Shown: positions 26,556 to 63,223 of the stretch, in pieces
Layout: every line of letters starts with the position of its first letter
Position numbering within the stretch: position 1 is the first letter of the stretch
Assembly (NCBI GenBank): GCA_963716145.1
Contig: OY970292.1
Span: 965,404 to 1,029,403 of the forward strand
From: Candidatus Levyibacteriota bacterium
Lineage (GTDB): Bacteria; Patescibacteriota; Microgenomatia; Levybacterales; UBA12049
Direction of reading: 5' to 3'
DNA: 64,000 nucleotides
Made by a program: the position numbers and the translations under genes
Notes under the pieces: generated by a model
The model's input: the letters and a program-made list of their open reading frames with translations, nothing else
Databases searched by the model: none
What the model was told of the DNA's origin: nothing

Positions 26556-28047
26556 AAAAAACAACGTCTTTAAAAACAAATTTAGTACTATACATTGACA
26601 GGTGGAATGGAAAAGGGCGAGATTCCGGTAAGGTAATAACATATTTAGGTTTTGCCAAATTTAGGGCTGTTTGGGTTTGCTCAAGCCCTCCTTTATATTG
26701 TCCTATGTGGTACGAAACAGCATATTTACCGGGAGGAAGCTTTTCAGAAAGCGCATAAATTTGTGCGGTATCGCCCCAGAGGAATACATTGTCTGCGGAG
26801 CTAGTGTGTGTTTTGATGAATGAAGCAATCTCATAGTCCCTAGGGGTTTTTTGGTCAAAAAATGATTGGTAGGAAATTACATCCTTCTTATTCATTAAGA
26901 AAGACAGGGCATTTTCGTAATAACGGAGTGATTTATTTAGGTTAGGTTTAAAAACTGAGCTAAGTAGAATTATTGTACAAACAAGCGTTAGCAAATAAAT
27001 AGATTTATCCCGCTTTTTGTTTGTTGCCGACAGCAGTCCTACCAAAAGGCATAGGCTAGGTACTGTTACAAGGGTATAGTGTGTATAAGGACGTCCTGAG
27101 AAGAAAGTATTGAAAAGGGAAAAAACGAGCCACAGTAGAACAAACATAAAAGCTTTGTTTAGTTGTTTTCTTCTCCAAAAAATAATCAAAACAGCTGTGC
27201 TCAAAAGAGCTAGCTTGAGTATCAAAAGCCCCTGTGGAATAATTAGTTTATTACCATAACCAACATATCCGACGTTTGAGAAAAATACCGCTGTCGTGAA
27301 ATCCGAAAATGCATGATTGAATAGAAAATATAAAAAAGTAATAATAATTGGAAATATAAATCCTAAAAATATTGGGTGGATAGGCTTTATTTCATTTTTT
27401 AAAAATGATTTTAGTTTAGAAAAATTACTTGGTAATTTATCCGGAGCATTAATAATAATTATAAAAATACAAAATGCGGCAAGATCAAATACAGCAACGA
27501 TTTTAAATAAAAATGCAATTCCTAGAAGAAAACCGGCAGCAGGAAGAATTAAGAATTTAGAATTAAGAATTAAGAATTGACGTTTAGAACTTAGAGAATA
27601 TACGAGTAATCCGGCTGTTGTAGTAAGTGGGAGCATAAAGTTCTCAGCGTTTGCAATATTTCCTTCCAGAATTGGAGTAGCAAATAGCAAAACAAAAAAC
27701 AGTGTTGAAATTATACTTGCTTTTAATTGTTTAAAGAGCAGTAGAGTAAGATAGAAAAATGACCATATGGCGAGAACCCCGCTAATTAAGGAAAAAAGCC
27801 TTACCTGAAATTGATCACCGTGAAAAAGGGAATAGACTATGTAAAGAAGTGGTGGTTTATTATCCCAAATTTGAACATACAGTAAACGGCCTTTATTTAT
27901 GGCAATCCCCAAAACCTGATAGATTCCTTCATCGCCATACCAGTTAGGTTCTATAAGGGAGGGAAGTCGAAGGAGGAAGAATATAAATGATAGCCCCAAT
28001 ATATACCAGAATGTTTTGTTTCTTTCTAATTTGGCAAGTATTTTCAT
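26539..28047 (-). CDS. GT39/GT83-like (ArnT/PMT-type) polyprenyl-phosphate-sugar-dependent membrane glycosyltransferase
   Basis: 502 aa with ≥10 TM helices and an N-terminal periplasmic-loop acidic motif (NWYGDEGIYQVLG) typical of GT-C enzymes. Contains the heptanucleotide microsatellite. Confidence 0.55.
   Translation of the reverse strand: MKILAKLERNKTFWYILGLSFIFFLLRLPSLIEPNWYGDEGIYQVLGIAINKGRLLYVQIWDNKPPLLYIVYSLFHGDQFQVRLFSLISGVLAIWSFFYLTLLLFKQLKASIISTLFFVLLFATPILEGNIANAENFMLPLTTTAGLLVYSLSSKRQFLILNSKFLILPAAGFLLGIAFLFKIVAVFDLAAFCIFIIIINAPDKLPSNFSKLKSFLKNEIKPIHPIFLGFIFPIIITFLYFLFNHAFSDFTTAVFFSNVGYVGYGNKLIIPQGLLILKLALLSTAVLIIFWRRKQLNKAFMFVLLWLVFSLFNTFFSGRPYTHYTLVTVPSLCLLVGLLSATNKKRDKSIYLLTLVCTIILLSSVFKPNLNKSLRYYENALSFLMNKKDVISYQSFFDQKTPRDYEIASFIKTHTSSADNVFLWGDTAQIYALSEKLPPGKYAVSYHIGQYKGGLEQTQTALNLAKPKYVITLPESRPFPFHLSMYSTKFVFKDVVFYERNY
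27544..27578. repeat. heptanucleotide microsatellite (AAGAATT)x5, one TAGAATT variant, inside the GT39-like coding sequence
   Basis: Units at 27544-50, 27551-57, 27558-64 (variant), 27565-71 and 27572-78. On the coding strand they encode …LILNSKFLILNSKFLIL…. Confidence 0.85.
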
Positions 28048-29556: not shown

Positions 29557-30366
29557 TTACTTTTCTAATTTAATAAATAATTTATATACATTATCATCCG
29601 TTTGCTGCGCCAATTTTTCCAGTGTTACACCTTTTAATTTAGCTATAAATTCTGCTGTAATTATAGCATGTTTGGGTTCATTTCGCTTGCCTCTGAAAGG
29701 AATGGGAGTTAAATAAGGGCTATCTGTTTCAATTACAATCCGCTCGAGCGGTGTGAGCTGGGCAAGCTCCGTGAGAGTAACTGTTTCACCGGGGGCTAAG
29801 CCTTTGTAAGTAATATTCCCGTCAAACCCGATATAGAAACCCATCTGCAGAGCAGACTTCAGAGTTTCTGTATTGCCTGCGAAACAATGGAACATGCCTG
29901 GGGTGTTTAGCAGCAGATGTTTATGCTCTTTCAAAATTTTTAAAATGTCCGCTCCTGCATGGCGGTTATGAATTTGAAGAGGAAGTTTCAATTTATGTGC
30001 GAGTTCTATTTGCTCAATGAATATCTTTTTTTGAAGGGTAGGATCTACTATACCGTTTGATTGATATGAATAGTAATCCAATCCTATTTCGCCAATTGCA
30101 AGAACTTTTTTATTTACAGCGAGTTTTTCAAGTTGCTCAATCCAATCCGATTTGAGGTCATGCTTGTCGGCATGATGTGGATGAACACCTATAATTGCAA
30201 ATATTTTGTCATATTTTTCCGCAAGTTCTACTGCTTTTTGGCTTGATTCAATTCTGGTCCCGACGTTTATAATTTTGGTTAAACCAGAGGAAAACGCGTC
30301 CTTGATGACTGAATCATAATCACTTTCAAAAGCTTGAAATTGTAAATGGCAATGGACATCTATCAT
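29557..30366 (-). CDS. tatD: TatD-family metal-dependent hydrolase/DNase
   Basis: MIDVHCHLQFQAF… and …GVHPHHA…IGEIGLDY… histidine motifs. Confidence 0.8.
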   Translation of the reverse strand: MIDVHCHLQFQAFESDYDSVIKDAFSSGLTKIINVGTRIESSQKAVELAEKYDKIFAIIGVHPHHADKHDLKSDWIEQLEKLAVNKKVLAIGEIGLDYYSYQSNGIVDPTLQKKIFIEQIELAHKLKLPLQIHNRHAGADILKILKEHKHLLLNTPGMFHCFAGNTETLKSALQMGFYIGFDGNITYKGLAPGETVTLTELAQLTPLERIVIETDSPYLTPIPFRGKRNEPKHAIITAEFIAKLKGVTLEKLAQQTDDNVYKLFIKLEK

Positions 30367-30470
30367 AAATAATTTTCAATTTTCAATTTTCAATTTGAAA
30401 TAAAATCTAAATTTTAAAAATTACGTCATTGAAAATTCAATGAAAATTTCAAATTTCGAATTAAAAATTA
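30367..30470. repeat. AT-rich intergenic motif family member (TTTTCAA x3 … TTGAAAATTCAATGAAAATT)
   Basis: aattttcaattttcaattttcaatttgaaa…cattgaaaattcaatgaaaatttcaaatttcgaattaaaaatt. Shares a 20-mer with 57231-57250. Confidence 0.7.
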
Positions 30471-30499
30471 TAATCGTGGAAACAAAGATTTCTGTGAAA

Positions 30500-32275: not shown

Positions 32276-32453
32276 AAACAAAAAAATTGTTTTCCTTTGA
32301 TTTCTCTCAGGACTAATCCTTCCCGTATGGGTTGGGTTGAGCACCGTTCCAAATTTTAGTCGGTTGCTGGATGGGTCACTGAGCCAAAACTCTCGCCATC
32401 ACTCTTGATTAATTTAATCTTAACATGGGATTAAATTTTCTGCAAGGGTTAAT

Positions 32454-34274: not shown

Positions 34275-34325
34275 CGAAGTTCAAAATTCAAATTGCAAAA
34301 TTCAAAATTACAATTAAAAATTAAA
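34275..34325. repeat. AT-rich intergenic motif family member (CAAAATTCAAA / AATTAAAAATT)
   Basis: gttcaaaattcaaattgcaaaattcaaaattacaattaaaaattaaaaatg immediately upstream of grpE. Confidence 0.6.
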
Positions 34326-34326
34326 A

Positions 34327-34827
34327 ATGACTAAAAAAGACATAAAAAATGAAGAAGAGAAGCTTGATGAAACAGAAGAAATTGAGGAAAACACAGAAGA
34401 CAGTGAACTTGAACAATTAAAAGTAAAGCTGGAATCAGCAGATGACAGCTACAAAAGAGCGCTTGCTGATTATCAAAATTTGCAGAAAAGAGTAAGTGAT
34501 GAAAGACGAGATCTGATATTGGCGGCCAATAGAGATTTGCTCTTGCGAATTCTTTCTGTTTTGGATACACTGGTTCTTGCAAACAAGCATGACGAGAGCG
34601 AAGGTTTGAAAGTCGCTATTAAGCAATTTGAAGATATACTAAAGTCAGAAGGTGTTACAAAAGTAGAAACTAAAGGATTAGAGTTTGATCCTCAATTTAT
34701 GGAAGCTGTAGCAATTGATTCTGGGGAGGAAAATAAAGTTTTAGAAGAAATGCGTTCAGGATTTATGTTAAACGATAAAGTTCTGAGACCGGCGCAAGTG
34801 AAAGTAGGTTCTGCAAAGCAGAATTAG
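34327..34827 (+). CDS. grpE: nucleotide exchange factor GrpE
   Basis: Acidic N-terminus, coiled coil (…DSYKRALADYQNLQKR…) and a C-terminal beta domain. Confidence 0.85.
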   Translation: MTKKDIKNEEEKLDETEEIEENTEDSELEQLKVKLESADDSYKRALADYQNLQKRVSDERRDLILAANRDLLLRILSVLDTLVLANKHDESEGLKVAIKQFEDILKSEGVTKVETKGLEFDPQFMEAVAIDSGEENKVLEEMRSGFMLNDKVLRPAQVKVGSAKQN

Positions 34828-36764: not shown

Positions 36765-36850
36765 CAATAATTACCAATTTCAAATATCCAATTCCCAAGA
36801 CGTTTATTTGATATTTGCAATTTGAAATTAGAAATTTGTAATTCAAAAGA
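36765..36850. repeat. AT-rich intergenic motif family member (CAATTTCAAAT / GCAATTTGAAATTAGAAATTTG)
   Basis: Low-complexity A/T run with CAA/TTG periodicity between dnaK and dnaJ. Confidence 0.5.
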
Positions 36851-55938: not shown

Positions 55939-56016
55939 ATATTTTGTATTATATAAATTTTCAGTCAAAAGTCAAGGTTGTGGGATCGAGCTTATTTTGC
56001 TATACTAGGCTTTAAT

Positions 56017-57144
56017 ATGCCGGCAGTACAGAGATCAGAATTTTCACTAGCACTTAATCAAGTCGCCTCAGAAAGAGGAGTCGACGTTGATGTCGTGTTG
56101 GACACAGTCAAGAACGCGATTCTCGCGGCATACCGCAAAGACCACGCGGGAGTTGAGGTTGAAGAATATAGGGCAGAGCTAAACCCCAATACAGGAGAAG
56201 CGAAGATTTTCCATAATGACAAAGACGTAACGCCTCCGGGATTTGGCAGGATTGCAGCCCAGACAGCAAAGCAGGTTATACTTCAGAAAATCCGTGAAAA
56301 AGAAAAAGAGGCGATATTTACAGATTACAGAGTAAAAATCGGGACTGTAATAAATGGCATGGTTTTGCGATTCGCGGGAGTGAATATAATCGTTGATATT
56401 GGAAAAGCTGAGGCTATTATGCCTCTTTCTGAGCAGGTGCCCAATGAAAAATACCATCTCAACCAGCGCCTTGGGTTTTATATGGTTGATATCCGTGAGG
56501 GTATGAAGGGAGACGAGATTATTGTATCCCGCGCGGCAAGCGGATTGGTTGAAGGCTTATTCAAGCGTGAAGTTCCAGAGATTGCATCAGGAAGCGTTGA
56601 GATAAAAGCCATAGTGCGCGAGCCTGGAAATCGTTCAAAAGTAGCGGTTTTTTCTTCACAACCAGGTATTGATCCGGTAGGATCATGTGTCGGACAAAAA
56701 GGGGTGCGGGTTCAATCAATAATTCAGGAATTGGGCGGACTTGAAAAAGTTGATATTATTCAATGGGCTGAGGAGCCAAAGACATATATTGCCCAAGCTC
56801 TGTCTCCTGCCAAAAATGTGCGTGTTGAGATAAATGAGGAAGATAAAGTTGCCCGCGTTTTTGTGCCTACAGAGGAACTATCTCTGGCAATTGGTAAAGA
56901 GGGTCAAAATGTCCGGCTTGCCCATAAGCTTACAGGCTACAGAATCGAAATAGAAGGAAAAGAAGAAGCTCCGGCAGAAGGCGAAGAAGCCTCAGCCGCT
57001 GGCAGTGAAGAGAAGGTCATCGTTGAACCAGGTGAGTCGAAGGAAAAGGGTGTAAAAGCGGCAAAACCAAAAGCAACTGCGAAAAAGACCCTTCGGCAGG
57101 CTCAGGGTAAAGCAAAGGCAACTAAAAAATCAGAAGAGAAATAA
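56017..57144 (+). CDS. nusA: transcription termination/antitermination factor NusA (no C-terminal AR domains) with a Lys/Ala/Glu-rich tail
   Basis: N-terminal domain, S1 (…GTVINGMVLRFAGVNIIVDIGKAEAIMPLSEQVPNEKY…), two KH domains (…GIDPVGSCVGQKGVRVQSIIQELGG…; …LAIGKEGQNVRLAHKLTGYRIEI…). Confidence 0.85.
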   Translation: MPAVQRSEFSLALNQVASERGVDVDVVLDTVKNAILAAYRKDHAGVEVEEYRAELNPNTGEAKIFHNDKDVTPPGFGRIAAQTAKQVILQKIREKEKEAIFTDYRVKIGTVINGMVLRFAGVNIIVDIGKAEAIMPLSEQVPNEKYHLNQRLGFYMVDIREGMKGDEIIVSRAASGLVEGLFKREVPEIASGSVEIKAIVREPGNRSKVAVFSSQPGIDPVGSCVGQKGVRVQSIIQELGGLEKVDIIQWAEEPKTYIAQALSPAKNVRVEINEEDKVARVFVPTEELSLAIGKEGQNVRLAHKLTGYRIEIEGKEEAPAEGEEASAAGSEEKVIVEPGESKEKGVKAAKPKATAKKTLRQAQGKAKATKKSEEK

Positions 57145-57281
57145 TAGAATTTTCAATTTGGAATTTTCAGTTTTCAATGAAACCTGCCTGCCGGCAGGCA
57201 GGTATAAATTTTAAATGTTTAAAAATTAATTTTTGAAAATTCAATGAAAATTAAAAATTGTAAATTAAAAATTAATAGCTT
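57145..57281. repeat. AT-rich intergenic motif family member flanking the palindrome (…TTTTCAATTTGGAATTTTCAGTTTTCAATGAAA[palindrome]…TTGAAAATTCAATGAAAATTAAAAATTGTAAATTAAAAATT)
   Basis: Contains the 20-mer ttgaaaattcaatgaaaatt that also occurs at 30447-30466. Confidence 0.7.
57182..57203. repeat. copy 1 of a 21-nt GC-rich motif containing the 20-nt perfect palindrome cctgcctgccggcaggcagg (acctgcctgccggcaggcaggt)
   Basis: Exact 20-nt self-complementary sequence in an AT-rich spacer; a second copy lies at 60739-60759. Confidence 0.9.
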
Positions 57282-58769
57282 ATGGCAAAAACAAATACAA
57301 AGGCAAGTGCAACTTCTGATAACCATTTCCCCCCAGTAGTCGCCGTATTGGGACACGTAGATCATGGCAAAACCACACTTCTTGATGCAATCCGCAGGAC
57401 TTCAATTGCAGAGGGGGAAAAGGGCGGAATTACACAAAAGATAGGCGCCTCAAGCGTTGAAATTGTCCATGATGGACAGAAAAGAAAAATTACATTTATT
57501 GACACTCCGGGACACGAAGCATTTGGACATATGCGTGGACGCGGCGCTCAAGCTGCTGATTTAGGTTTACTAATAGTATCCCTGGCTGACAGTGTCAAAC
57601 CTCAGACAAAAGAAAGCATTGCTATCCTTCAGGAGTCAAAAACTCCATTTATTGTTGTTCTGACGAAGTCAGACCTTCCTGATCTTATTCCTGAAAAAAG
57701 CAAAAAAGATCTCGCAAAAGAAGGTATTTTGCTTGAGGGATATGGGGGAGATGTGCCTGTTATGGAAGTCTCAGCCAAAACAGGTAGCAATATCAAAGAA
57801 CTTTTGGATTTGATTCTTCTGATGTTTGATTTACATAAAAAGCCGGAATACGCGAAAGAAATTTCAGCTAGCGCTGCCCTTCAGGCCATAGTTATTGAAG
57901 CCAAAATGGATCCAAGAGCGGGTTCAAAAGCAACGGTTATTGTAAAAAATGGAAGCGTTCAGGCGCGGGACATGCTCAAAGTTGACGGGCAGATCTTTAA
58001 AGTCAGGATGCTTATGACCGATCTGGGTAAACCGGTTGAGAAAGCAACAGTTGGAGATGCAGTTGAAGTGTTTGGATTTGCAAAAGTTCCACAGGTTGGA
58101 AGCATTATTGCTCATGAGTCCGCGTCAAACGCGACTGCGGCCGAGCAAGCCTCAGTTCCGGAACAGTTAAGCCGTGAAGTTGTATACAAGAGAGAAGAAG
58201 AGCACGCGGGGCTTTCAGTAATTCTGGTAGCTGATACCCAAGGCTCACTCGAGGCTATTGCCAATTCACTACCTGAGGGAATAAGGACCATGACCAAAAA
58301 AACCGGTGAGGTGACTGATGCTGATATTTTGCTTGCGAAGTCAACCAGCAGCATTATTTTGAGTTTTAATACTAAGCTCAAGCCTGAGATTATAACATTG
58401 GCAATGAGTGAAAAAGTGCTCCTTCGCAACTATGAAGTTATTTATGAGCTGCTGGATGAGATAAAAGATGCTCAGGAAGGTAAGCTGCTTTCCCAGATGG
58501 AGCAGATTTATGGAACCGCAAAAATTTTGGCCAAATTCCCTTTTGAAAAAACATTTGCGTTTGGAGTCTCGGTTAGTGACGGACGGGTGGCCAAAGGAGA
58601 TAAGGTACGGATTACACGCGGAAGCGATACAATCGTTGAAACCACAATTAACTCTCTTCGGATAGGTAAAAACCCAACTTCAAAGGTAGAGAAAGGAAAT
58701 GAGGCAGGATTGGTTTTAACAAACCCCCTTGACATTTTGGTAGGAGATGTGATACTATCCCATAGTTAA
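57282..58769 (+). CDS. infB: translation initiation factor IF-2, short form (G domain + domain II + C-terminal domains; no N-terminal extension)
   Basis: VVAVLGHVDHGKTTLLDAIR (G1), DTPGHEAF (G3), …VVLTKSDL… (G4). Confidence 0.85.
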   Translation: MAKTNTKASATSDNHFPPVVAVLGHVDHGKTTLLDAIRRTSIAEGEKGGITQKIGASSVEIVHDGQKRKITFIDTPGHEAFGHMRGRGAQAADLGLLIVSLADSVKPQTKESIAILQESKTPFIVVLTKSDLPDLIPEKSKKDLAKEGILLEGYGGDVPVMEVSAKTGSNIKELLDLILLMFDLHKKPEYAKEISASAALQAIVIEAKMDPRAGSKATVIVKNGSVQARDMLKVDGQIFKVRMLMTDLGKPVEKATVGDAVEVFGFAKVPQVGSIIAHESASNATAAEQASVPEQLSREVVYKREEEHAGLSVILVADTQGSLEAIANSLPEGIRTMTKKTGEVTDADILLAKSTSSIILSFNTKLKPEIITLAMSEKVLLRNYEVIYELLDEIKDAQEGKLLSQMEQIYGTAKILAKFPFEKTFAFGVSVSDGRVAKGDKVRITRGSDTIVETTINSLRIGKNPTSKVEKGNEAGLVLTNPLDILVGDVILSHS

Positions 58770-58801
58770 TCTTTTCTGTGAGGCAGAATGAAGTTTAAGA
58801 T

Positions 58802-59917
58802 ATGGATAATAATGTAGTTCAACAGATAAAAGATGCTATCGCGCAAAGCCAAAGTATTGGTGTAGTAGCCCCAAAGAATCCTTCAATGGATGAGATGGCA
58901 GCTGCGCTTTCTCTCTATCTTTTACTCAAAAGCACCAACAAAAACGTGTCTATAGCGTCCCCTAGTGACCCCATAGTCGAGATTTCATCCCTGGTTGGAA
59001 TTGACAAAGTCGAAAAAGCCTTAAAAGGATCAGGCGGAGTAGGAGATTTAACAGTGTCATTTCCTTACACTGAAGGTGAGATAGAAAAAGTTTCCTACAC
59101 GCTTGAGGAAGGATACCTTAATATAATCGTTAAAGCTGCTGAGCAGGGGTTAACCTTCGATGAGAAAGACGTAGAATACACACGAGGCGGTGGCAATCTT
59201 GATCTTGTTTTTACCGTGGGTGCGCCAAATCTCGCTGATTTGGATCCTGTTTTTGATACTCAAAATCTTGATATAAAAATAGTTAATATAGACAACAAAG
59301 AGGAAAATGAGCAATTTGGTGATATCGTCTTAATTTCCCAAAAATTGTCTTCACTTAGTGAGGGAGTTGCGGATCTCGCGCTTTCACTGGGACTTCATAT
59401 AGATGAAGATAGCGCTCAGAATTTACTAAATGGTATATCCAGTGAAACAGGTAACTTTCAAGATTCCAAAACAAGCTCACTTGCTTTTGAAATGGCAGCA
59501 CTTTTAATGAAAAAAGGTGCAACCCGCGTGAGTTCAGCAAGCGCAAGGCGCGGAATAAGTATTGATCAGGATCAACAGCGCGGTGTCCGTCCACAAGTTT
59601 CGGCACAACAATCTGCTGGCCAAAGACGTGCCCCCTCCGCCGCTGAGGCTTCCACCGACGCTAAAGCTTTGGCGGACAGGTCGGTAGGCAAGCAGGACAA
59701 GCGGGAGCAAGATAGACAAAAATTTGAAGAAAACTTGCAAAAAAGAGTCCAGGAAGAAAAAGCCAGAGAAGCTTCAGGTCAGCCAAGAAACACCCAGCCA
59801 GTGCGCAATCAGCAAATAGAAAACAAAAACCAACCCACCGATGAAGCAGCAGATGCTGATGAGACTCCGACAGATTGGCTCGCCCCAAAAGTCTACAAAG
59901 GCTCAAGTGAAGTTTAA
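58802..59917 (+). CDS. DHH/DHHA1 (NrnA-like) fold protein with degenerate catalytic motifs and a C-terminal Q/R/A/E-rich low-complexity tail
   Basis: The N-terminus aligns with NrnA (…IKDAIAQSQSIGVVAPKNPSMDEMAAALSLYLLLK… versus …I.IHRH.RPDPDA.GS.LGL…). The DHH motif is replaced (…VNIDNKEEN…) and GGGH is degenerate. Occupies the position usually held by rbfA/truB between infB and rpsO. Confidence 0.35.
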   Translation: MDNNVVQQIKDAIAQSQSIGVVAPKNPSMDEMAAALSLYLLLKSTNKNVSIASPSDPIVEISSLVGIDKVEKALKGSGGVGDLTVSFPYTEGEIEKVSYTLEEGYLNIIVKAAEQGLTFDEKDVEYTRGGGNLDLVFTVGAPNLADLDPVFDTQNLDIKIVNIDNKEENEQFGDIVLISQKLSSLSEGVADLALSLGLHIDEDSAQNLLNGISSETGNFQDSKTSSLAFEMAALLMKKGATRVSSASARRGISIDQDQQRGVRPQVSAQQSAGQRRAPSAAEASTDAKALADRSVGKQDKREQDRQKFEENLQKRVQEEKAREASGQPRNTQPVRNQQIENKNQPTDEAADADETPTDWLAPKVYKGSSEV

Positions 59918-59920
59918 TAT

Positions 59921-60343
59921 ATGACTGAAAGAACACCAAGCAATGAAATCGCTACTGCCTTACATGGGTCTGCTATGAATATTTCAGATGAAGCAGATGC
60001 TGCAATGAGAAGAAAAGATTCAGGGGTAGCAAGGAAGCTTTACTCGACCGCTGCCGTTATTGAAGAAGAAGCTTTTGAACGGGCATCAGCACAAGGACCA
60101 TTAAGCGTTGATGATCCTCAAGGGACTGTCAGTAAAGCAGTTTTGGGTAGAAGCGCTGCATCGCTTTATGAAAATGCTGGTAAACATCGATCTGCTGTGA
60201 GAGTCGCTCAGAGAACTTTGGACAAAATTGCTGGAATGCCAGTTTATAAGGAGTTAGTGGGTGAGCTAGCAGAAGTAGTTACCGAAGCCCGGAGCCACAT
60301 GGGAGTTAATCGAGTAAGGGAATTGGTTAGACGAAAAAAGTAA
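59921..60343 (+). CDS. hypothetical protein (140 aa)
   Basis: ORF with elevated GC content and no recognisable motif. Confidence 0.3.
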   Translation: MTERTPSNEIATALHGSAMNISDEADAAMRRKDSGVARKLYSTAAVIEEEAFERASAQGPLSVDDPQGTVSKAVLGRSAASLYENAGKHRSAVRVAQRTLDKIAGMPVYKELVGELAEVVTEARSHMGVNRVRELVRRKK

Positions 60344-60428
60344 TAAGGCTTCAAATTTTAACAGACCCCTTGTAGTAAATCTTCAAACCTGCTATAATGC
60401 AGACAATAAGAATTAAGAAAGCAAATTT

Positions 60429-60697
60429 ATGCCGCTTAGTACTACACAGAAGCAAGACATTATAAATGAATTTCAGACAGGAAAAGGAGATACCGGATCG
60501 CCTGAGGTGCAAATCGCGCTTCTGACCAAAAGGATCACCAGACTTGCTGAACACCTCAAAGATCACGCGCATGACGTTCATTCCCGCAGGGCCTTCTCTC
60601 AATGATTGCAAAAAGACGAAGACTTATCAACTTTCTTAAAAAAGTTGATGAAGTACGGGTTGGAGACATTCTGAAGAAAATCGGAATGAAAGATTGA
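60429..60697 (+). CDS. rpsO: 30S ribosomal protein S15 (rpsO), interrupted by a -1 frameshift at a GGG run (~60589-60591); probable homopolymer sequencing error
   Basis: Frame 0: [54 protein letters not shown] then AFSQ*. The -1 frame from 60590 reads [35 protein letters not shown]. Joined, these give a canonical 89-aa S15. Confidence 0.8.
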
Positions 60698-60738
60698 CAC
60701 CGACTTCAAAAACTGTCATGCTGGATAAACTTCAGCAT

Positions 60739-60759
60739 CCCTGCCTGCCGGCAGGCAGG
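60739..60759. repeat. copy 2 of the shared 21-nt motif (20-nt palindrome cctgcctgccggcaggcagg + t) in the rpsO-pnp intergenic region
   Basis: Same 21-nt motif cctgcctgccggcaggcaggt as in 57183-57203. Confidence 0.9.
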
Positions 60760-60819
60760 TCCAGACCTCTAACCAGATCAGGATGACAACGAAAGAAGGA
60801 CGAAAGATCAAGAATATAA

Positions 60820-63223
60820 ATGAAAGACAATAAGACCTCAGTTAGTTTTGATTTTGCAGGAAAACAAATGACCTTTGAAACCGGCCAACTTGCCGTACAG
60901 GCAACTGCTGCTGTTTTGGCCAGACTTGGCGATACAGTGGTTCTTGCAACTGTTGTTGGAGGCGGAAAAAGACCTGATATTGATTATTTCCCACTAAGCG
61001 TTGATTACGTTGAAAGACTTTACGCTGGTGGAAAAATAAAAGGCAGTCGTTGGGTAAAAAGAGAAGGACGTCCATCGGACGAAGCAATTCTCGCAGGTAG
61101 ACTTATCGACCGTTCCATTCGACCACTATTCTCAAAGTCATTCAAAAATGAAGTTCAGGTAATTGTTACGGTCCTTTCAGTTGATTCTGAAAACGAAGCT
61201 GATATTCTAGCTCTTAACGCTGTAAGCGCAGCTCTTGCGATGTCAAAAATTCCATGGAATGGTCCTATTGCTGCTGTCAGGATGGGATATATCGAGGAGA
61301 AAGACGGTACTCAGGCTGCATATCTCCCAAACCCTACAACAACAGAAGCAGAGCACTCAATTCTTGATGTAGTTGTCTCACAAAGCCGCGAAAAAACAGT
61401 CATGATTGAGTCTGGAGCGCTTCAAGTTCCTGAAGATGTAGTAGATGAAGCAATTGTGCAAGCCCACACAGAGACAAGAAAAGTTCTGAAGGGAATTGAG
61501 GAACTTGTCAAAAAAGTAGGACAGGAAAAAATAGTGATTGAAGAAGACACCACACTCAATGATGCGGTTGCCCTCTTTGAAAAATCTTACAAGAAAGAAG
61601 TAGATGGTTTGATCAAGTCTCGTGTAAGCAAAGAAGGAGCAGGCGATGAAACAGGAGAGCTTATTAACCGCGTTGCTGATGAGATTAAAGCCAAAGACTC
61701 CAAAGCAGAGGTAGACAAAAAACTTCTCGCCAAAGCGCTTGAATACGTTATGTTCAAAACAATCCGCTCAGAAACAGTCAATAAGAAAAAGCGGGTTGAT
61801 GGAAGAGCACTTGATGAACTGCGTGAAATAAAGGCAAATGTGGGAATCTTGCCAAGAACCCATGGGTCTGCTTTGTTTGAAAGAGGAATTACTCAAGCTC
61901 TTAGTATTGTTACCCTTGGTTCACCAAGACTTGAACAGCTTATTGAATCAGCAGAGGGTGAAGAAATAAAGCGCTATATCCATCATTACTCAGGTCTTCC
62001 ATATTCTTTTGGGCAGGCGGGCAGAATGGGATTCACTTCAAGGCGTGAAATCGGACACGGTGCACTCGCAGAGCGCGCGCTTAAAGCAGTTATCCCTTCA
62101 CAAAAAGATTTTCCATACACCATCAGAGTTGTTTCAGAAGTTCTCTCGCAAAACGGATCATCCTCTATGGCATCAACTTGCGGCTCAACACTTGCTCTTA
62201 TGGACGCGGGAGTTCCAATTACAGCACCTGTTGCCGGAATTTCAATCGGAATGATGTCAGAGGGAGACAAATATGTCTTGTTGACAGATATTATCGGACT
62301 TGAAGATTTTTCAGGCGATATGGATTTTAAGGTCGCGGGAACAGAAAAAGGCATCACTGCAATCCAGCTTGATGTAAAAATAGACGGTTTAACAGACGCG
62401 CAAGTTGTTGAGATATTGGCTCGTGCCCGCACAGCCCGCATGCAGATTCTTGAAAAAATGCTTGCTTCACTTCCTGAGTCACGTAAGGAAGTTTCAGAAT
62501 ACGCTCCAAAGATCGAACAGATTCAAGGTACCAGTTGATAAGATTGGTGAAATAATCGGGCCGGGGGGCAAAAATATTAAAGCAATTATTGCACAAACAG
62601 GAGCAGACGTTGATGTTGATGACGACGGAATTGTGAGTGTTTCTGGGATTTCCGAAGAAGCAGTCAAAAAAGCAGTTGATTGGATAAGCGGTATGACACG
62701 GGATGTTACTGTGGGCGAGGAATTTGAGGGAGAAGTTAAAAGAATTCTTCCATTCGGAGCTTTCGTTGAATATCTACCTGGCCGTGAAGGAATGGTACAT
62801 GTGTCCAAAATGAAAAGAGGAGCTTTTGTAAAGGATCCCTCAGAAGTTGTAAAAATTGGGCAAAAAGTAAAGGTAAAAGTAGAGGAACGCGATCAGCAGG
62901 GTCGAATAAATCTGACAATGCTTCTTGATGGAGATGACAATGGTGCACCTCCCGGGCAGGGATTTGATAGGCCGGCTCAACCTAGAGATGAGGGTCAAAG
63001 CGGACAAGGTGGTTTTCAATCAGGCCCAAGACGTCCTTCTTTCAACCGCGACGCTGCGCCTTTCGGCAATGCCAAACCTAGATCAGGTAGGTCTTTTAAC
63101 CCTGATTCAGGGCCCAAATCAGATCATCCGCTGTCACAGGCATTACGACGCGAAAGTGCTCAGGCCCGCAATCCCCGCGGTGCCGGCAAATTCGGCGGCC
63201 CCAAAAAACGCTTCAGCAGATAA
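60820..63223 (+). CDS. pnp: polynucleotide phosphorylase (PNPase), interrupted by a +1 frameshift (extra G at ~62527) between the second RNase PH domain and KH/S1; C-terminal RG-rich tail
   Basis: ORF 60820..62538 holds the two RNase PH domains and ends …EYAPKIEQIQGTS*. ORF 62405..63223 in the next frame reads …VPVDKIGEIIGPGGKNIKAII… (KH) and …GEEFEGEVKRILPFGAFVEYLPGREGMVHVSKM… (S1). Deleting one G from caaGGtacc restores APKIEQIQVPVDKIGEIIG, which is colinear with E. coli PNPase. Confidence 0.85.

Follow-up and report, generated by a model that had tools for sequence, protein, structure and literature searches.

In the window, by which we mean the whole 64-kb stretch of DNA analysed here, nusA, infB, a DHH gene, rpsO and pnp follow one another, and the 20-mer CCTGCCTGCCGGCAGGCAGG occurs exactly twice, once between nusA and infB and once between rpsO and pnp. 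An earlier note on this DNA had reported a motif present twice with a self-complementary 20-mer in it, and the exact match at both sites bears this out; its 21-nt form is correctly placed at 57183-57203, but the second lies at 60740-60760, where it ends in T, and not at 60739-60759. Nowhere else in the 64 kb is there a third site with three or fewer mismatches. The suspicion that chance could hardly account for the motif was also sound, as 100 dinucleotide-preserving shuffles of the window gave no match to the 20-mer and the chance expectation for the window is no copy. The features are as follows.

57183..57202, no strand assigned: solo copy 1 of the 20-nt palindrome, by exact match
60740..60759, no strand assigned: solo copy 2 of the 20-nt palindrome, between a C and a T
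57145..57281, + strand: AT-rich nusA-infB spacer hosting copy 1, from its repeats, its fold and inverted repeat I1
60714..60788, + strand: REP-like compound hairpin hosting copy 2 in the rpsO-pnp spacer, from comparison with locus L122 and from folds
30362..30490, + strand: an 'empty' paralogue of the copy-1 spacer in the same genome, from alignment A1

Copy 1 is separated by 38 nt from the nusA stop upstream (57144) and by 79 nt from the infB start downstream (57282); for copy 2 the distances are 42 nt from where the rpsO reading frame ends (60697) and 60 nt to the pnp start (60820). Both copies lie in transcribed spacers between co-oriented genes. Together with its flanking A and T, copy 1 makes a 22-nt perfect palindrome (57182-57203) that folds into a 9-bp stem with a CCGG loop (-16.6 kcal/mol, z = -4.2), and copy 2 folds into an 8-bp stem with a CCGG loop within the folded rpsO-pnp spacer. 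Both copies are present in a separate public contig (L121, from the Logan assembly of run ERR11593400), which shows 2 mismatches to the window across 7710 nt. We regard the two as solo copies, and not as parts of the tRNA cassettes described below, because the 64 kb contain no tRNA gene and no GIY-YIG gene or ORF; for this genome the tie to the nuclease is accordingly indirect.

The nusA-infB spacer is AT-rich, as had been claimed for both sites, and its inverted arrays of 7-nt repeats of the ATTTTCA / AAAATTA type (tandem repeats at 57147-57173, 57214-57246 and 57247-57275) form one long imperfect hairpin (-37 kcal/mol, z = -5.65), in whose apical loop copy 1 adjoins the 5' arm. Around copy 2 the base composition is ordinary. 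The host hairpin of this copy has an outer stem GTCAT...ATGAC, with the palindrome at the position of the apical loop of L122: the spacer of that relative, which has no palindrome, reads gtcatgctgaa..ttcagcatc TTCAAA gatcctgaa..ttcaggatgac, and its counterpart in the window reads cagcatc, then the 20-mer, then tccagacc...atcaggatgac. The paralogue at 30362..30490 is identical to the copy-1 spacer at 89 of 117 aligned positions in alignment A1 and shares the AT-rich heptamer arms without the GC palindrome, the gap in the alignment being the palindrome plus one repeat unit of the copy-1 spacer. We infer that each window copy inserted as a solo element at the apex of a spacer hairpin that already existed.

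The order nusA-infB-DHH-rpsO-pnp is kept in the closest relatives, and flanking synteny extends across both window sites, yet these relatives lack the 20-mer. Among 49 related loci of the same synteny it is absent from 48, the closest included: L161, 82% identical at the nucleotide level in the nusA region, has an empty spacer, and L122 likewise lacks the 20-mer. None of the related rpsO-pnp spacers examined contains it, nor do they share a common hairpin. A more distant relative, L164, does carry the site-1 copy in its nusA-infB spacer, which is 88% identical to that of the window against 72-77% for the neighbouring genes; this difference could reflect selection on the spacer or the transfer of a larger unit.

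Beyond these relatives, the exact 20-mer was found in at least 120 genome stretches from many phyla, including Patescibacteria, Bacteroidota, Omnitrophota, Planctomycetota, Verrucomicrobiota, Elusimicrobia, Thermodesulfovibrionales and Chloroflexi, against a chance expectation of about 0.5 for one 20-mer in 596 Gb (our own estimate), so that it is clearly neither private to these two sites nor an adapter, the outcomes that the earlier note had named as refuting it. Viral stretches account for a further aspect of this range, with 35 containing the 20-mer and none containing the arm-swapped control GGCAGGCAGGCCTGCCTGCC. When the loop was left free (CCTGCCTGNNNNCAGGCAGG), CCGG was recovered at 42 sites, a one-base variant of it at 9 and other loops at 5, and we therefore consider the copies a single sequence family and not a general class of hairpins. 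Their flanks are unrelated from locus to locus, the only signals being an A at -1 (42%) and a T at +1, with no conserved tetranucleotide. The settings comprise intergenic hairpin loops, 7-nt tandem repeats, the element's own copies, tRNA D-loops and genes, in which eight copies are in frame and one reading frame is favoured (seven of the eight read LPAGRQ). Decayed copies occur, as do point-mutated ones, the latter also at orthologous sites (L187 vs L216/L217; window vs L164). Among the matches listed, a second copy was present in 5 of 120 8-kb blocks, and the window has 2 per 64 kb. A literature search found no published description of the 20-nt element.

Copies in tRNA genes add exactly 20 nt with no target duplication, whether they interrupt canonical D-arms or, as in a viral tRNA-Met that is otherwise intact, the variable loop. 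Copies nested in other copies (L018, L042, L021) always follow nt 11, equivalent to nt 9 on the other strand, and again add exactly 20 nt; in L221 the 20-mer is itself split by other palindromes. We compared 162 sites with random junctions within the same loci. A host stem of at least 7 bp spans 10.5% of sites and 3.9% of controls (p = 3e-4), and the site abuts one arm of the host stem in 14 of 27 cases (162 of 697 controls, p = 0.002). Direct repeats of at least 7 nt lie across 15% of sites and 5% of controls (p = 6e-7), and a period-7 tandem repeat is in the flank of 6.8% of sites and 0.3% of controls (p = 1e-10), no other repeat period in the flanks being enriched in this way. Existing hairpin loops and 7-nt tandem repeats are thus favoured targets. 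A coding copy in gatB is not a clean 20-nt insertion: compared with an allele encoding a 94% identical protein, about 9 nt are replaced for a net gain of 12 nt. Part of the spread may be due to recombination or repair and not to transposition of the palindrome itself, because several copies are located at rearrangement junctions.

About 5-7% of the sampled sites are next to a mobile cassette of constant layout, in which a partial copy of the 5' part of a tRNA gene (26-46 nt) with the palindrome in its D-loop is followed by a 13-44 nt spacer, an ORF of about 80 aa encoding a GIY-YIG nuclease and the intact tRNA. The 20-mer ends 13-44 nt upstream of the ORF start in L037, L203, L106, L118 and L099; in L060, about 40 nt separate it from the GIY-YIG domain downstream. 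Starting from the protein side, 8 of 8 sampled loci of nuclease relatives had this layout, with the 20-mer exact in L223, L225, L231, L237 and L238 and as derivatives in L221, L224, L234 and L239. The nuclease gene adjoins the palindrome in at least 14 loci, with the palindrome on one side only and at a constant position within cassettes. The protein matches the Pfam GIY-YIG family, its nearest solved structures by sequence are UPF0213 proteins and the structure-specific endonuclease SLX1, and it consists of the bare catalytic domain with no recognisable DNA-binding module; a profile search retrieved 7555 cluster representatives at E <= 1e-8. One relative, at L093, is inside a 23S rRNA insertion. 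Other loci have parts of the arrangement, L030 a tRNA duplicate and the 20-mer without the ORF, L010 and L039 GIY-YIG fragments 100-160 nt from a 20-mer. The interrupted tRNA copies were missed by ARAGORN.

By analogy, the behaviour of the element resembles that of cyanobacterial small dispersed repeat (SDR) elements and of the REP/RAYT system. Elhai and colleagues reportedly described SDRs in 2008 as repeats of about 20-27 nt in Nostocaceae that insert precisely, nest in themselves and are often embedded in tandem heptamer repeats. The 20-mer is likewise short (20-22 nt), encodes no protein, inserts precisely into tRNA genes and into its own copies, and is enriched at period-7 repeats, with window site 1 within heptamer arrays. 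To our knowledge, no protein partner has been reported for SDRs, unlike the 20-mer, which is tied to the GIY-YIG/tRNA cassette. The 20-mer is also a perfect GC palindrome, set apart from SDR1-8 by its hosts, and it is identical across many phyla and phages, whereas SDRs are reported only from one cyanobacterial family; no cyanobacterial genome is among the 120 matches listed. Two papers that cite this work confirm the precise insertion of SDR5 into HIP1 and the confinement of SDRs to Nostocaceae (PMC4390886, PMC5861425).

The cassettes themselves recall free-standing GIY-YIG homing endonuclease genes, such as the T4 seg genes in tRNA clusters and I-TevI, in that the ORF lies at conserved RNA genes that are not inactivated (the 23S rRNA insertion included) and in that their taxonomic presence is patchy. 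They differ in the size of the ORF, its lack of a DNA-binding domain and its closeness to UPF0213/SLX1, and in the duplicated tRNA 5' part, always with the GC palindrome. In fungal mitochondria, GC clusters, double-hairpin elements and palindromic microsatellites, all of them short palindromes rich in GC, spread through AT-rich spacers and at times into genes, and the genomes that have them are also rich in GIY-YIG homing endonuclease genes; their sequences are different, their hosts organellar, and no fixed cassette with a tRNA duplicate is known for them. REP and REPIN sequences, too, are short GC-rich palindromes that lie for the most part outside genes, on their downstream side, and occasionally within them in frame, and the REP/REPIN-RAYT systems (REPtrons) similarly have many solo copies of which few are linked to a nuclease gene (PMC3733652, PMC3116915). 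However, REPs are imperfect palindromes with an unpaired GTAG/CGTC tag, found in a narrow clade at tens to hundreds per genome, whereas the 20-mer is perfect, has no GTAG or CGTC tag and occurs in many phyla at low local density. Its partner is a UPF0213/SLX1-type GIY-YIG nuclease instead of an IS200/IS605-like Y1 (HUH) transposase, with the palindrome on one side of the gene, whereas RAYT genes are flanked by REPs. Rickettsia palindromic elements (RPEs) are also palindromic repeats that lie in frame in protein genes and in RNA genes (PMC3733652), but RPEs are 100-150 bp long, restricted to a single genus and CGTC-tagged. MITEs enclose 50-500 bp between terminal inverted repeats and duplicate their target site, unlike a 20-nt unit without duplication at tRNA and nested sites.

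We consider it probable that both window sites are solo copies of a 20-22-nt GC-rich palindromic insertion element and not regulators of nusA-infB or rpsO-pnp; of the four roles proposed earlier, a small repeated REP/MITE-like element is the only one that fits the evidence. Since tRNA genes are near-universal targets, the cassettes would be the reservoir from which the palindrome passes from one lineage to another. From the cassettes the palindrome would be copied into other single-stranded loop/stem junctions, probably after the structure-specific nuclease nicks the point where the loop meets the 3' arm. At the two window sites it would have landed in the apex of pre-existing spacer hairpins, with no dedicated role in either gene pair. 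The transcripts would gain a stable 8-9-bp hairpin that might, as a by-product, attenuate read-through at site 1 or shield RNA ends, and any effect as terminator or RNA stabiliser is probably incidental. More tentatively, and as a possibility that we would not favour over its negation, the 20-mer could be the non-autonomous partner of an undescribed mobile class, in which a minimal SLX1/UPF0213-type GIY-YIG nuclease that rides on tRNA genes in many phyla nicks hairpins at the loop/3'-stem junction and so drives insertion. Rather unlikely, in our view, is that the palindrome never moves autonomously and is a passenger of double-strand-break repair or gene conversion started by cassettes, or of recombination at break-prone palindromes, solo copies being leftovers of such events or of decayed cassettes. 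In its favour, L104 site 2 falls precisely where a replaced gatB 3' end meets a remnant of the old one, and the replacement at the gatB coding copy, the direct repeats across sites, the ORF-less duplicate in L030 and the nuclease fragments in L010 and L039 point the same way. However, most solo sites (the window sites, heptamer arrays, unrelated loops and nested copies) have no homology to tRNA genes or cassettes, and nested copies gain exactly 20 nt at one fixed position.

A selected cis-regulatory RNA, acting as terminator or attenuator after nusA and, in the pnp leader, as a stability or RNase III site of the kind found in E. coli rpsO-pnp, is very unlikely, despite the transcribed, co-oriented setting of both copies, the great stability of the hairpin and the retention of the site-1 copy by L164 in a well-conserved spacer. 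Site 1 does match the terminator consensus on the + strand (a 9-bp stem, then ATAAATTTTA), in a scan that gave 10 terminator-like sites in this region against 10.2 in shuffled sequence; copy 2 has no consensus match and no T tract, and any termination would be a side effect that does not account for the motif's presence. The RNase III/pnp hairpin and the conserved factor-binding site proposed earlier both run against the motif's absence from syntenic relatives and its identical presence in coding regions and tRNA genes of other phyla and in phage contigs, and no Rfam family matches the window sites. A stem of 8-9 bp is short for RNase III substrates, and a leader hairpin of the E. coli type would be long and conserved among relatives with rpsO-pnp, unlike the 8-bp stem at site 2, whose 20-mer the related spacers examined lack. 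We see only a slim chance that a dimeric DNA-binding protein uses the palindrome as its operator, for instance in autoregulation of the GIY-YIG gene, with solo copies as further binding sites. Its perfect dyad symmetry and its fixed place before the GIY-YIG start codon would suit such a role, and I-TevI represses its own promoter, but self-nested, coding-region, unrelated-loop and decayed in-cassette copies are left unexplained, and the nuclease is the bare domain noted above. Adapter or linker sequence, or an assembly chimera, has a negligible probability and is effectively refuted: head-to-head ligation of adapters would yield a perfect palindrome and most matches are from metagenome-assembled genomes, but six named cultured isolates carry the 20-mer (Winogradskyella echinorum, Flagellimonas yonaguniensis, Longitalea luteola, Aquiflexum lacus, Agriterribacter humi and Aestuariivivens sediminis), the data come from many laboratories, assemblers and sequencing platforms, and the syntenic flanks at both window sites, mutated orthologous copies, reading-frame bias and constant position within cassettes are also against it.

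A practical consequence for annotators is that, in an AT-rich genome, a GC hairpin downstream of a gene is not necessarily a terminator or a regulatory site, and some broken tRNA predictions are explained by the interrupted copies that ARAGORN missed. The 20-mer is also a simple marker of horizontal transfer among Candidate Phyla Radiation bacteria, Bacteroidota and their phages. If the insertion-element reading is true, this 20-letter sequence would rank with the smallest known mobile elements and would be unusual in having passed from phylum to phylum without change, with duplicates of tRNA genes identified as its carriers. It would also provide a candidate for the enzyme of very small mobile repeats, missing since the description of SDRs in 2008, and a role for the very common 'GIY-YIG nuclease family protein', whose function is unnamed in the annotations shown. 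If the nuclease is indeed the partner, the pair would be a GIY-YIG counterpart of the REP-RAYT pair, and could explain why tiny repeats are linked to heptamer arrays, and also SDR elements and further 'universal' palindromes, TCCGCCAGCTGGCGGA for example.

The palindrome CCTGCCTGCCGGCAGGCAGG is present in the window as two exact copies, one in the nusA-infB spacer and one in the rpsO-pnp spacer, the second of which the earlier note had placed off by one base. The features around them are as follows.

32311-32414, minus strand, SAM riboswitch (RF00162, 51 bits)
55978-57144, NusA, gene call
57183-57202, 20-mer copy 1, exact match
57282-58769, IF2, gene call, followed in gene calls by a DHH-family protein, an unassigned 140-aa ORF, S15 and, from 60820, PNPase
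60740-60759, 20-mer copy 2, exact match

The gene calls around both copies agree with the assignments made from the sequence, and the claim that such a palindrome is rare by chance is borne out by shuffled window sequence, which yields no match to the 20-mer. Both spacers had been described as AT-rich, which holds for copy 1 but not for copy 2. A window-wide search found no site within three mismatches of the 20-mer in the rest of the 64 kb; copy 1 extends to a 22-nt palindrome (A...T). Both copies recur in a separately assembled public contig (L121), and we know of no sequencing adapter or linker that matches the 20-mer. An Rfam search gave no match at either palindrome, the SAM riboswitch being the sole window match that reaches the Rfam gathering score.

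Comparison with related loci indicates how the two copies came to be there. A metagenome scan with IF2 as query returned 50 related loci, and the order nusA-infB-DHH-(variable)-rpsO-pnp is kept in those long enough to show it. The conservation check proposed in the earlier note came out negative, since the 20-mer (up to four substitutions) is missing from all scanned IF2-related loci but one, L164, which has CCTGCCTGCCGGCAGGCAAGG in a nusA-infB spacer 88% identical to that of the window. The same spacer is empty in L161 and L159, although both are nearer to the window than L164 (nusA-region nucleotide identity of 82% and 79%, against 77%). The rpsO-pnp spacer of another relative, L122, holds a long REP-like hairpin (gtcatgctgaa...ttcagcatc TTCAAA gatcctgaa...ttcaggatgac), and copy 2 occupies exactly the position of its apical loop. 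The nusA-infB spacer is made of inverted 7-nt repeat arrays and folds as a single long AT-rich hairpin (z = -5.65), with copy 1 in the apical loop, adjoining one arm; an "empty" paralogue of this spacer element lies elsewhere in the window.

30362-30490, "empty" paralogue of the nusA-infB spacer element
27544-27578, 30371-30396, 34280-34328, 36806-36843 and 57147-57275, AT-rich 7-nt tandem arrays

Because of the empty relatives, the L122 hairpin, the spacer fold and the empty paralogue, we interpret both window copies as insertions at the apex of pre-existing hairpins. As judged from the sequences compared, the window 20-mers are not a conserved feature of the nusA-infB-rpsO-pnp operon and are not a conserved terminator, and an RNase III-processed leader, one of the roles first suggested for the palindrome, is not supported. 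The arrays themselves (units AAGAATT, AATTTTC, TTCAAAA, ATTTGAA and AAAATTA) are mostly intergenic, resemble cyanobacterial STRR heptamers, and in some cases build long inverted-repeat hairpins (e.g. 36768-36830).

Beyond these relatives the 20-mer is widespread. A scan of one genome per species found the exact sequence at 120 loci or more, and hosts among the matches listed include many Patescibacteria lineages, Omnitrophota, Bacteroidota, Ignavibacteria, Planctomycetota, Verrucomicrobia, Elusimicrobia, Thermodesulfovibrionales, Thermodesulfobacteriota and Chloroflexi; cultured Bacteroidota carriers include Winogradskyella, Flagellimonas, Longitalea, Flavivirga, Aquiflexum, Agriterribacter and Aestuariivivens. 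In IMG/VR it is found in 35 stretches, versus none for an arm-swapped control palindrome. When the loop was left free in the search, CCGG was found at 42 sites, a one-base variant at 9 and another loop at 5. Flanks are unrelated from locus to locus, their sole signal being an excess of A...T (34/125) and G...G / C...C (33/125). By its sequence, then, the 20-mer is one discrete, slowly decaying family, and it appears to be undescribed; literature searches on the 20-mer, its halves and its sister palindromes found no relevant description. Some "uncultured Gammaproteobacteria" labels among the hosts cannot be taken at face value: the GatB of L104 has its nearest named relatives in Shapirobacteria, which makes L104 Shapirobacteria-like, and in other TPA "binchicken" records this label can probably hide Patescibacteria too. 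The taxon labels of such TPA metagenome-assembled genomes are not to be trusted.

Many solo copies are precise insertions biased towards hairpin loops. Compared with random junctions from the same loci, 20-mer sites are more often spanned by a host stem (10.5% vs 3.9%), adjoin one arm of a host stem (52% vs 23%), are bracketed by a direct repeat (15% vs 5%) or have a period-7 tandem repeat in the flank (6.8% vs 0.3%, p = 1e-10). About 87% of sites fall outside long reading frames. The 20-mer is stop-free in every frame, and eight copies lie in frame within genes, among them FtsK (L013), GatB (L104) and S6 (L047), seven of the eight being read as LPAGRQ. Relative to the L219 allele, whose protein is 94% identical, the L104 gatB copy replaced about 9 nt with a net gain of 12 nt, turning the peptide DDGQTV into DDLPAGRQVV. 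The 3' end of L104 gatB has been swapped for a diverged copy (L104 2740-2900 vs L219 4500-4640), and what is left of the original final 14 codons directly follows a second 20-mer, which thus marks a recombination junction. Copies nested within another 20-mer (L018, L042, L021) add exactly 20 nt, every time after nt 11. A transposase was sought in L192, the viral contig richest in 20-mers, which gave only a phage adaptor-like ORF.

Several insertions are in tRNA genes. In five stretches (L085, L203, L015, L037, L099) the canonical D-arm is parted by exactly 20 nt, and a viral tRNA-Met is intact but for the 20-mer in its variable loop. Most interrupted tRNAs are partial 5' duplicates (the first 26-46 nt) just upstream of the intact same tRNA, and the small ORF between them encodes a GIY-YIG nuclease (Pfam PF01541, 7/7). 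In L037, L203, L106, L118, L099 and L060, 13-44 nt separate the end of the 20-mer from the ORF or its GIY-YIG domain. The ORF runs up to the intact tRNA, its stop codon touching or overlapping the tRNA 5' end; the tRNAs seen in this position are Arg, Leu, Asn, Lys, Gly, Met and Val. The layout persists in L077 with the 20-mer decayed, and L030 keeps the duplicate and the 20-mer and has lost the ORF. A profile built from the cassette ORFs matched 7555 proteins (E ≤ 1e-8); the listed ones have lengths of 77-154 aa, mostly about 80, with named hosts mainly in Bacteroidota, Omnitrophota and Patescibacteria. Eight of these nuclease relatives were sampled solely by long contig or named host, and the genomic context of all eight has the same layout of partial tRNA with D-loop palindrome, short spacer, ORF and intact tRNA.

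Cassettes before tRNA genes in the sampled nuclease relatives (others: L037, L106, L118)
L223 640-1020, Dokdonia, Arg-TCG, palindrome exact
L225, metagenome, Leu-GAG, palindrome exact
L231, Omnitrophica, Asn, palindrome exact
L237 and L238, one genome, Arg-ACG, palindrome exact
L239, Arg-ACG, palindrome mutated (21 nt)
L224, Ekhidna, Leu-TAA, two decayed palindrome copies
L234, Polaribacter, Arg-TCG, three decayed palindrome copies
L221, Muricauda, Met, palindrome split by nested palindromes

The 20-mer is thus a constant part of a tRNA-linked GIY-YIG cassette. The nearest solved structures to the nuclease by sequence are UPF0213 proteins (E = 1e-13) and SLX1 (E = 1e-5), a structure-specific endonuclease, and no NCBIfam model reaches its cut-off on it. 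Viral contigs scanned with the GIY-YIG profile gave no contig beyond the one already known, and we found no paper on a GIY-YIG/tRNA/palindrome arrangement. In L039 (1040-1500), D-loop A21|G22 of a partial tRNA-Val copy holds a GC palindrome other than the 20-mer, the 33-nt CCCGCCCGTACCGAACGGGTACGTTCGGGCGGG.

Several other arrangements were observed. Further downstream in L039, a GC-rich insert containing the 20-mer interrupts the T-loop of a duplicated tRNA 3' part. In L060 (3861-4145), the 20-mer and GIY-YIG domain lie in frame in a 714-aa ORF with flanks like HsdS (type I restriction specificity), which may be an in-frame cassette insertion. A same-family GIY-YIG ORF lies within a 23S rRNA gene insertion of a Saccharibacteria genome (L093 4797-5015). 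Downstream of the L203 cassette (800-1400), an intron-like sequence encoding an HNH endonuclease-like ORF (907-1392) interrupts a tRNA copy after the anticodon-loop CT.

We propose that cassettes carry the palindrome from lineage to lineage, tRNA genes being conserved targets. The nuclease, which resembles SLX1, would nick extruded or single-stranded hairpins where the loop meets the 3' stem; D-loop A21|G22 is such a junction, as is the place in the loop of the 20-mer where nested copies lie. The palindrome would enter at this nick by copying or joining. The two tRNA copies of a cassette form a direct repeat through which the cassette would otherwise be lost, and the palindrome may serve to interrupt that repeat; other possibilities are that it destroys a cleavage site or stabilises the mRNA 5' end.

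Among known systems, cyanobacterial SDR elements match the 20-mer in behaviour: they are reportedly also tiny, precisely inserted, self-nesting and located in heptamer arrays. To our knowledge, no protein partner of SDRs has been reported. Two papers report them in Nostocaceae only (PMC4390886, PMC5861425). Of the roles suggested earlier, that of a small repeated REP/MITE-like element fits the evidence; the 20-mer is not a MITE, and the defining REP features fail. Its many solo copies and few nuclease-linked ones recall REP/RAYT, from which it differs in having no tag, a perfect palindrome, no lineage specificity and, as its partner gene, a GIY-YIG nuclease and not a RAYT. A DDE transposon footprint of joined terminal inverted repeats was rejected for the lack of target duplication, and a Helitron/IS91-like insertion at an AT target on account of the tRNA and nested sites, which are not AT. 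A double BspMI-type IIS site (ACCTGC...GCAGGT) was rejected as well, being confined to the A...T class, 27% of copies. A replicated hairpin-telomere junction (protelomerase/ResT target site) and a recombinase core site were also considered and rejected.

Other GC palindromes recur as well, judged by raw occurrence. The 16-mer sister TCCGCCAGCTGGCGGA behaves similarly in low-GC contigs and may be enriched there. A second palindrome, (T)CCGCCAGCTGGCGG(A), is found in unrelated genomes and viral contigs (L016, L011, L242, L268, L271, L251, L286 and others), often right in the middle of a host hairpin, and TCCCGATAGCTATCGGGA and GGGACAGGTCGCGACCTGTCCC are likewise recurrent. With CCGCCAGCTGGCGG, TCCCGATAGCTATCGGGA and GGGACAGGTCGCGACCTGTCCC all recurring, there may be a broader family of such "universal" small palindromes.

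Both genes flanking copy 2 are frameshifted.

60429-60697, rpsO frameshift, shift at the G run 60588-60591
60820-63223, pnp frameshift, extra G at 62527/62528

The rpsO ORF is only 58 aa long, with its stop at 60605, and the S15 C-terminus runs on in another frame to 60697; S15 is intact (89 aa) in relatives, the window CGCAGGGCCTT is one G short, and the break is common to the window and L121. PNPase, one ORF of 776-800 aa in relatives, falls into two pieces here: 60820-62538 holds two RNase PH domains, and 62405-63223 the KH and S1 domains, the window reading caaGGtaccagttga where the in-frame version would be ...caaGtaccagttgat... These frameshifts may be sequencing errors, pseudogenes or recoding.

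In the nusA-infB and rpsO-pnp transcripts, the 20-mers each contribute a hairpin with a folding energy near -16 kcal/mol, and copy 1 could cause partial transcription termination; we regard the transcript effects of both hairpins as incidental. The window copies are ordinary solo members of the palindrome family, which we place among the very small mobile palindromic repeats, as a variant whose partner gene is of a new kind.
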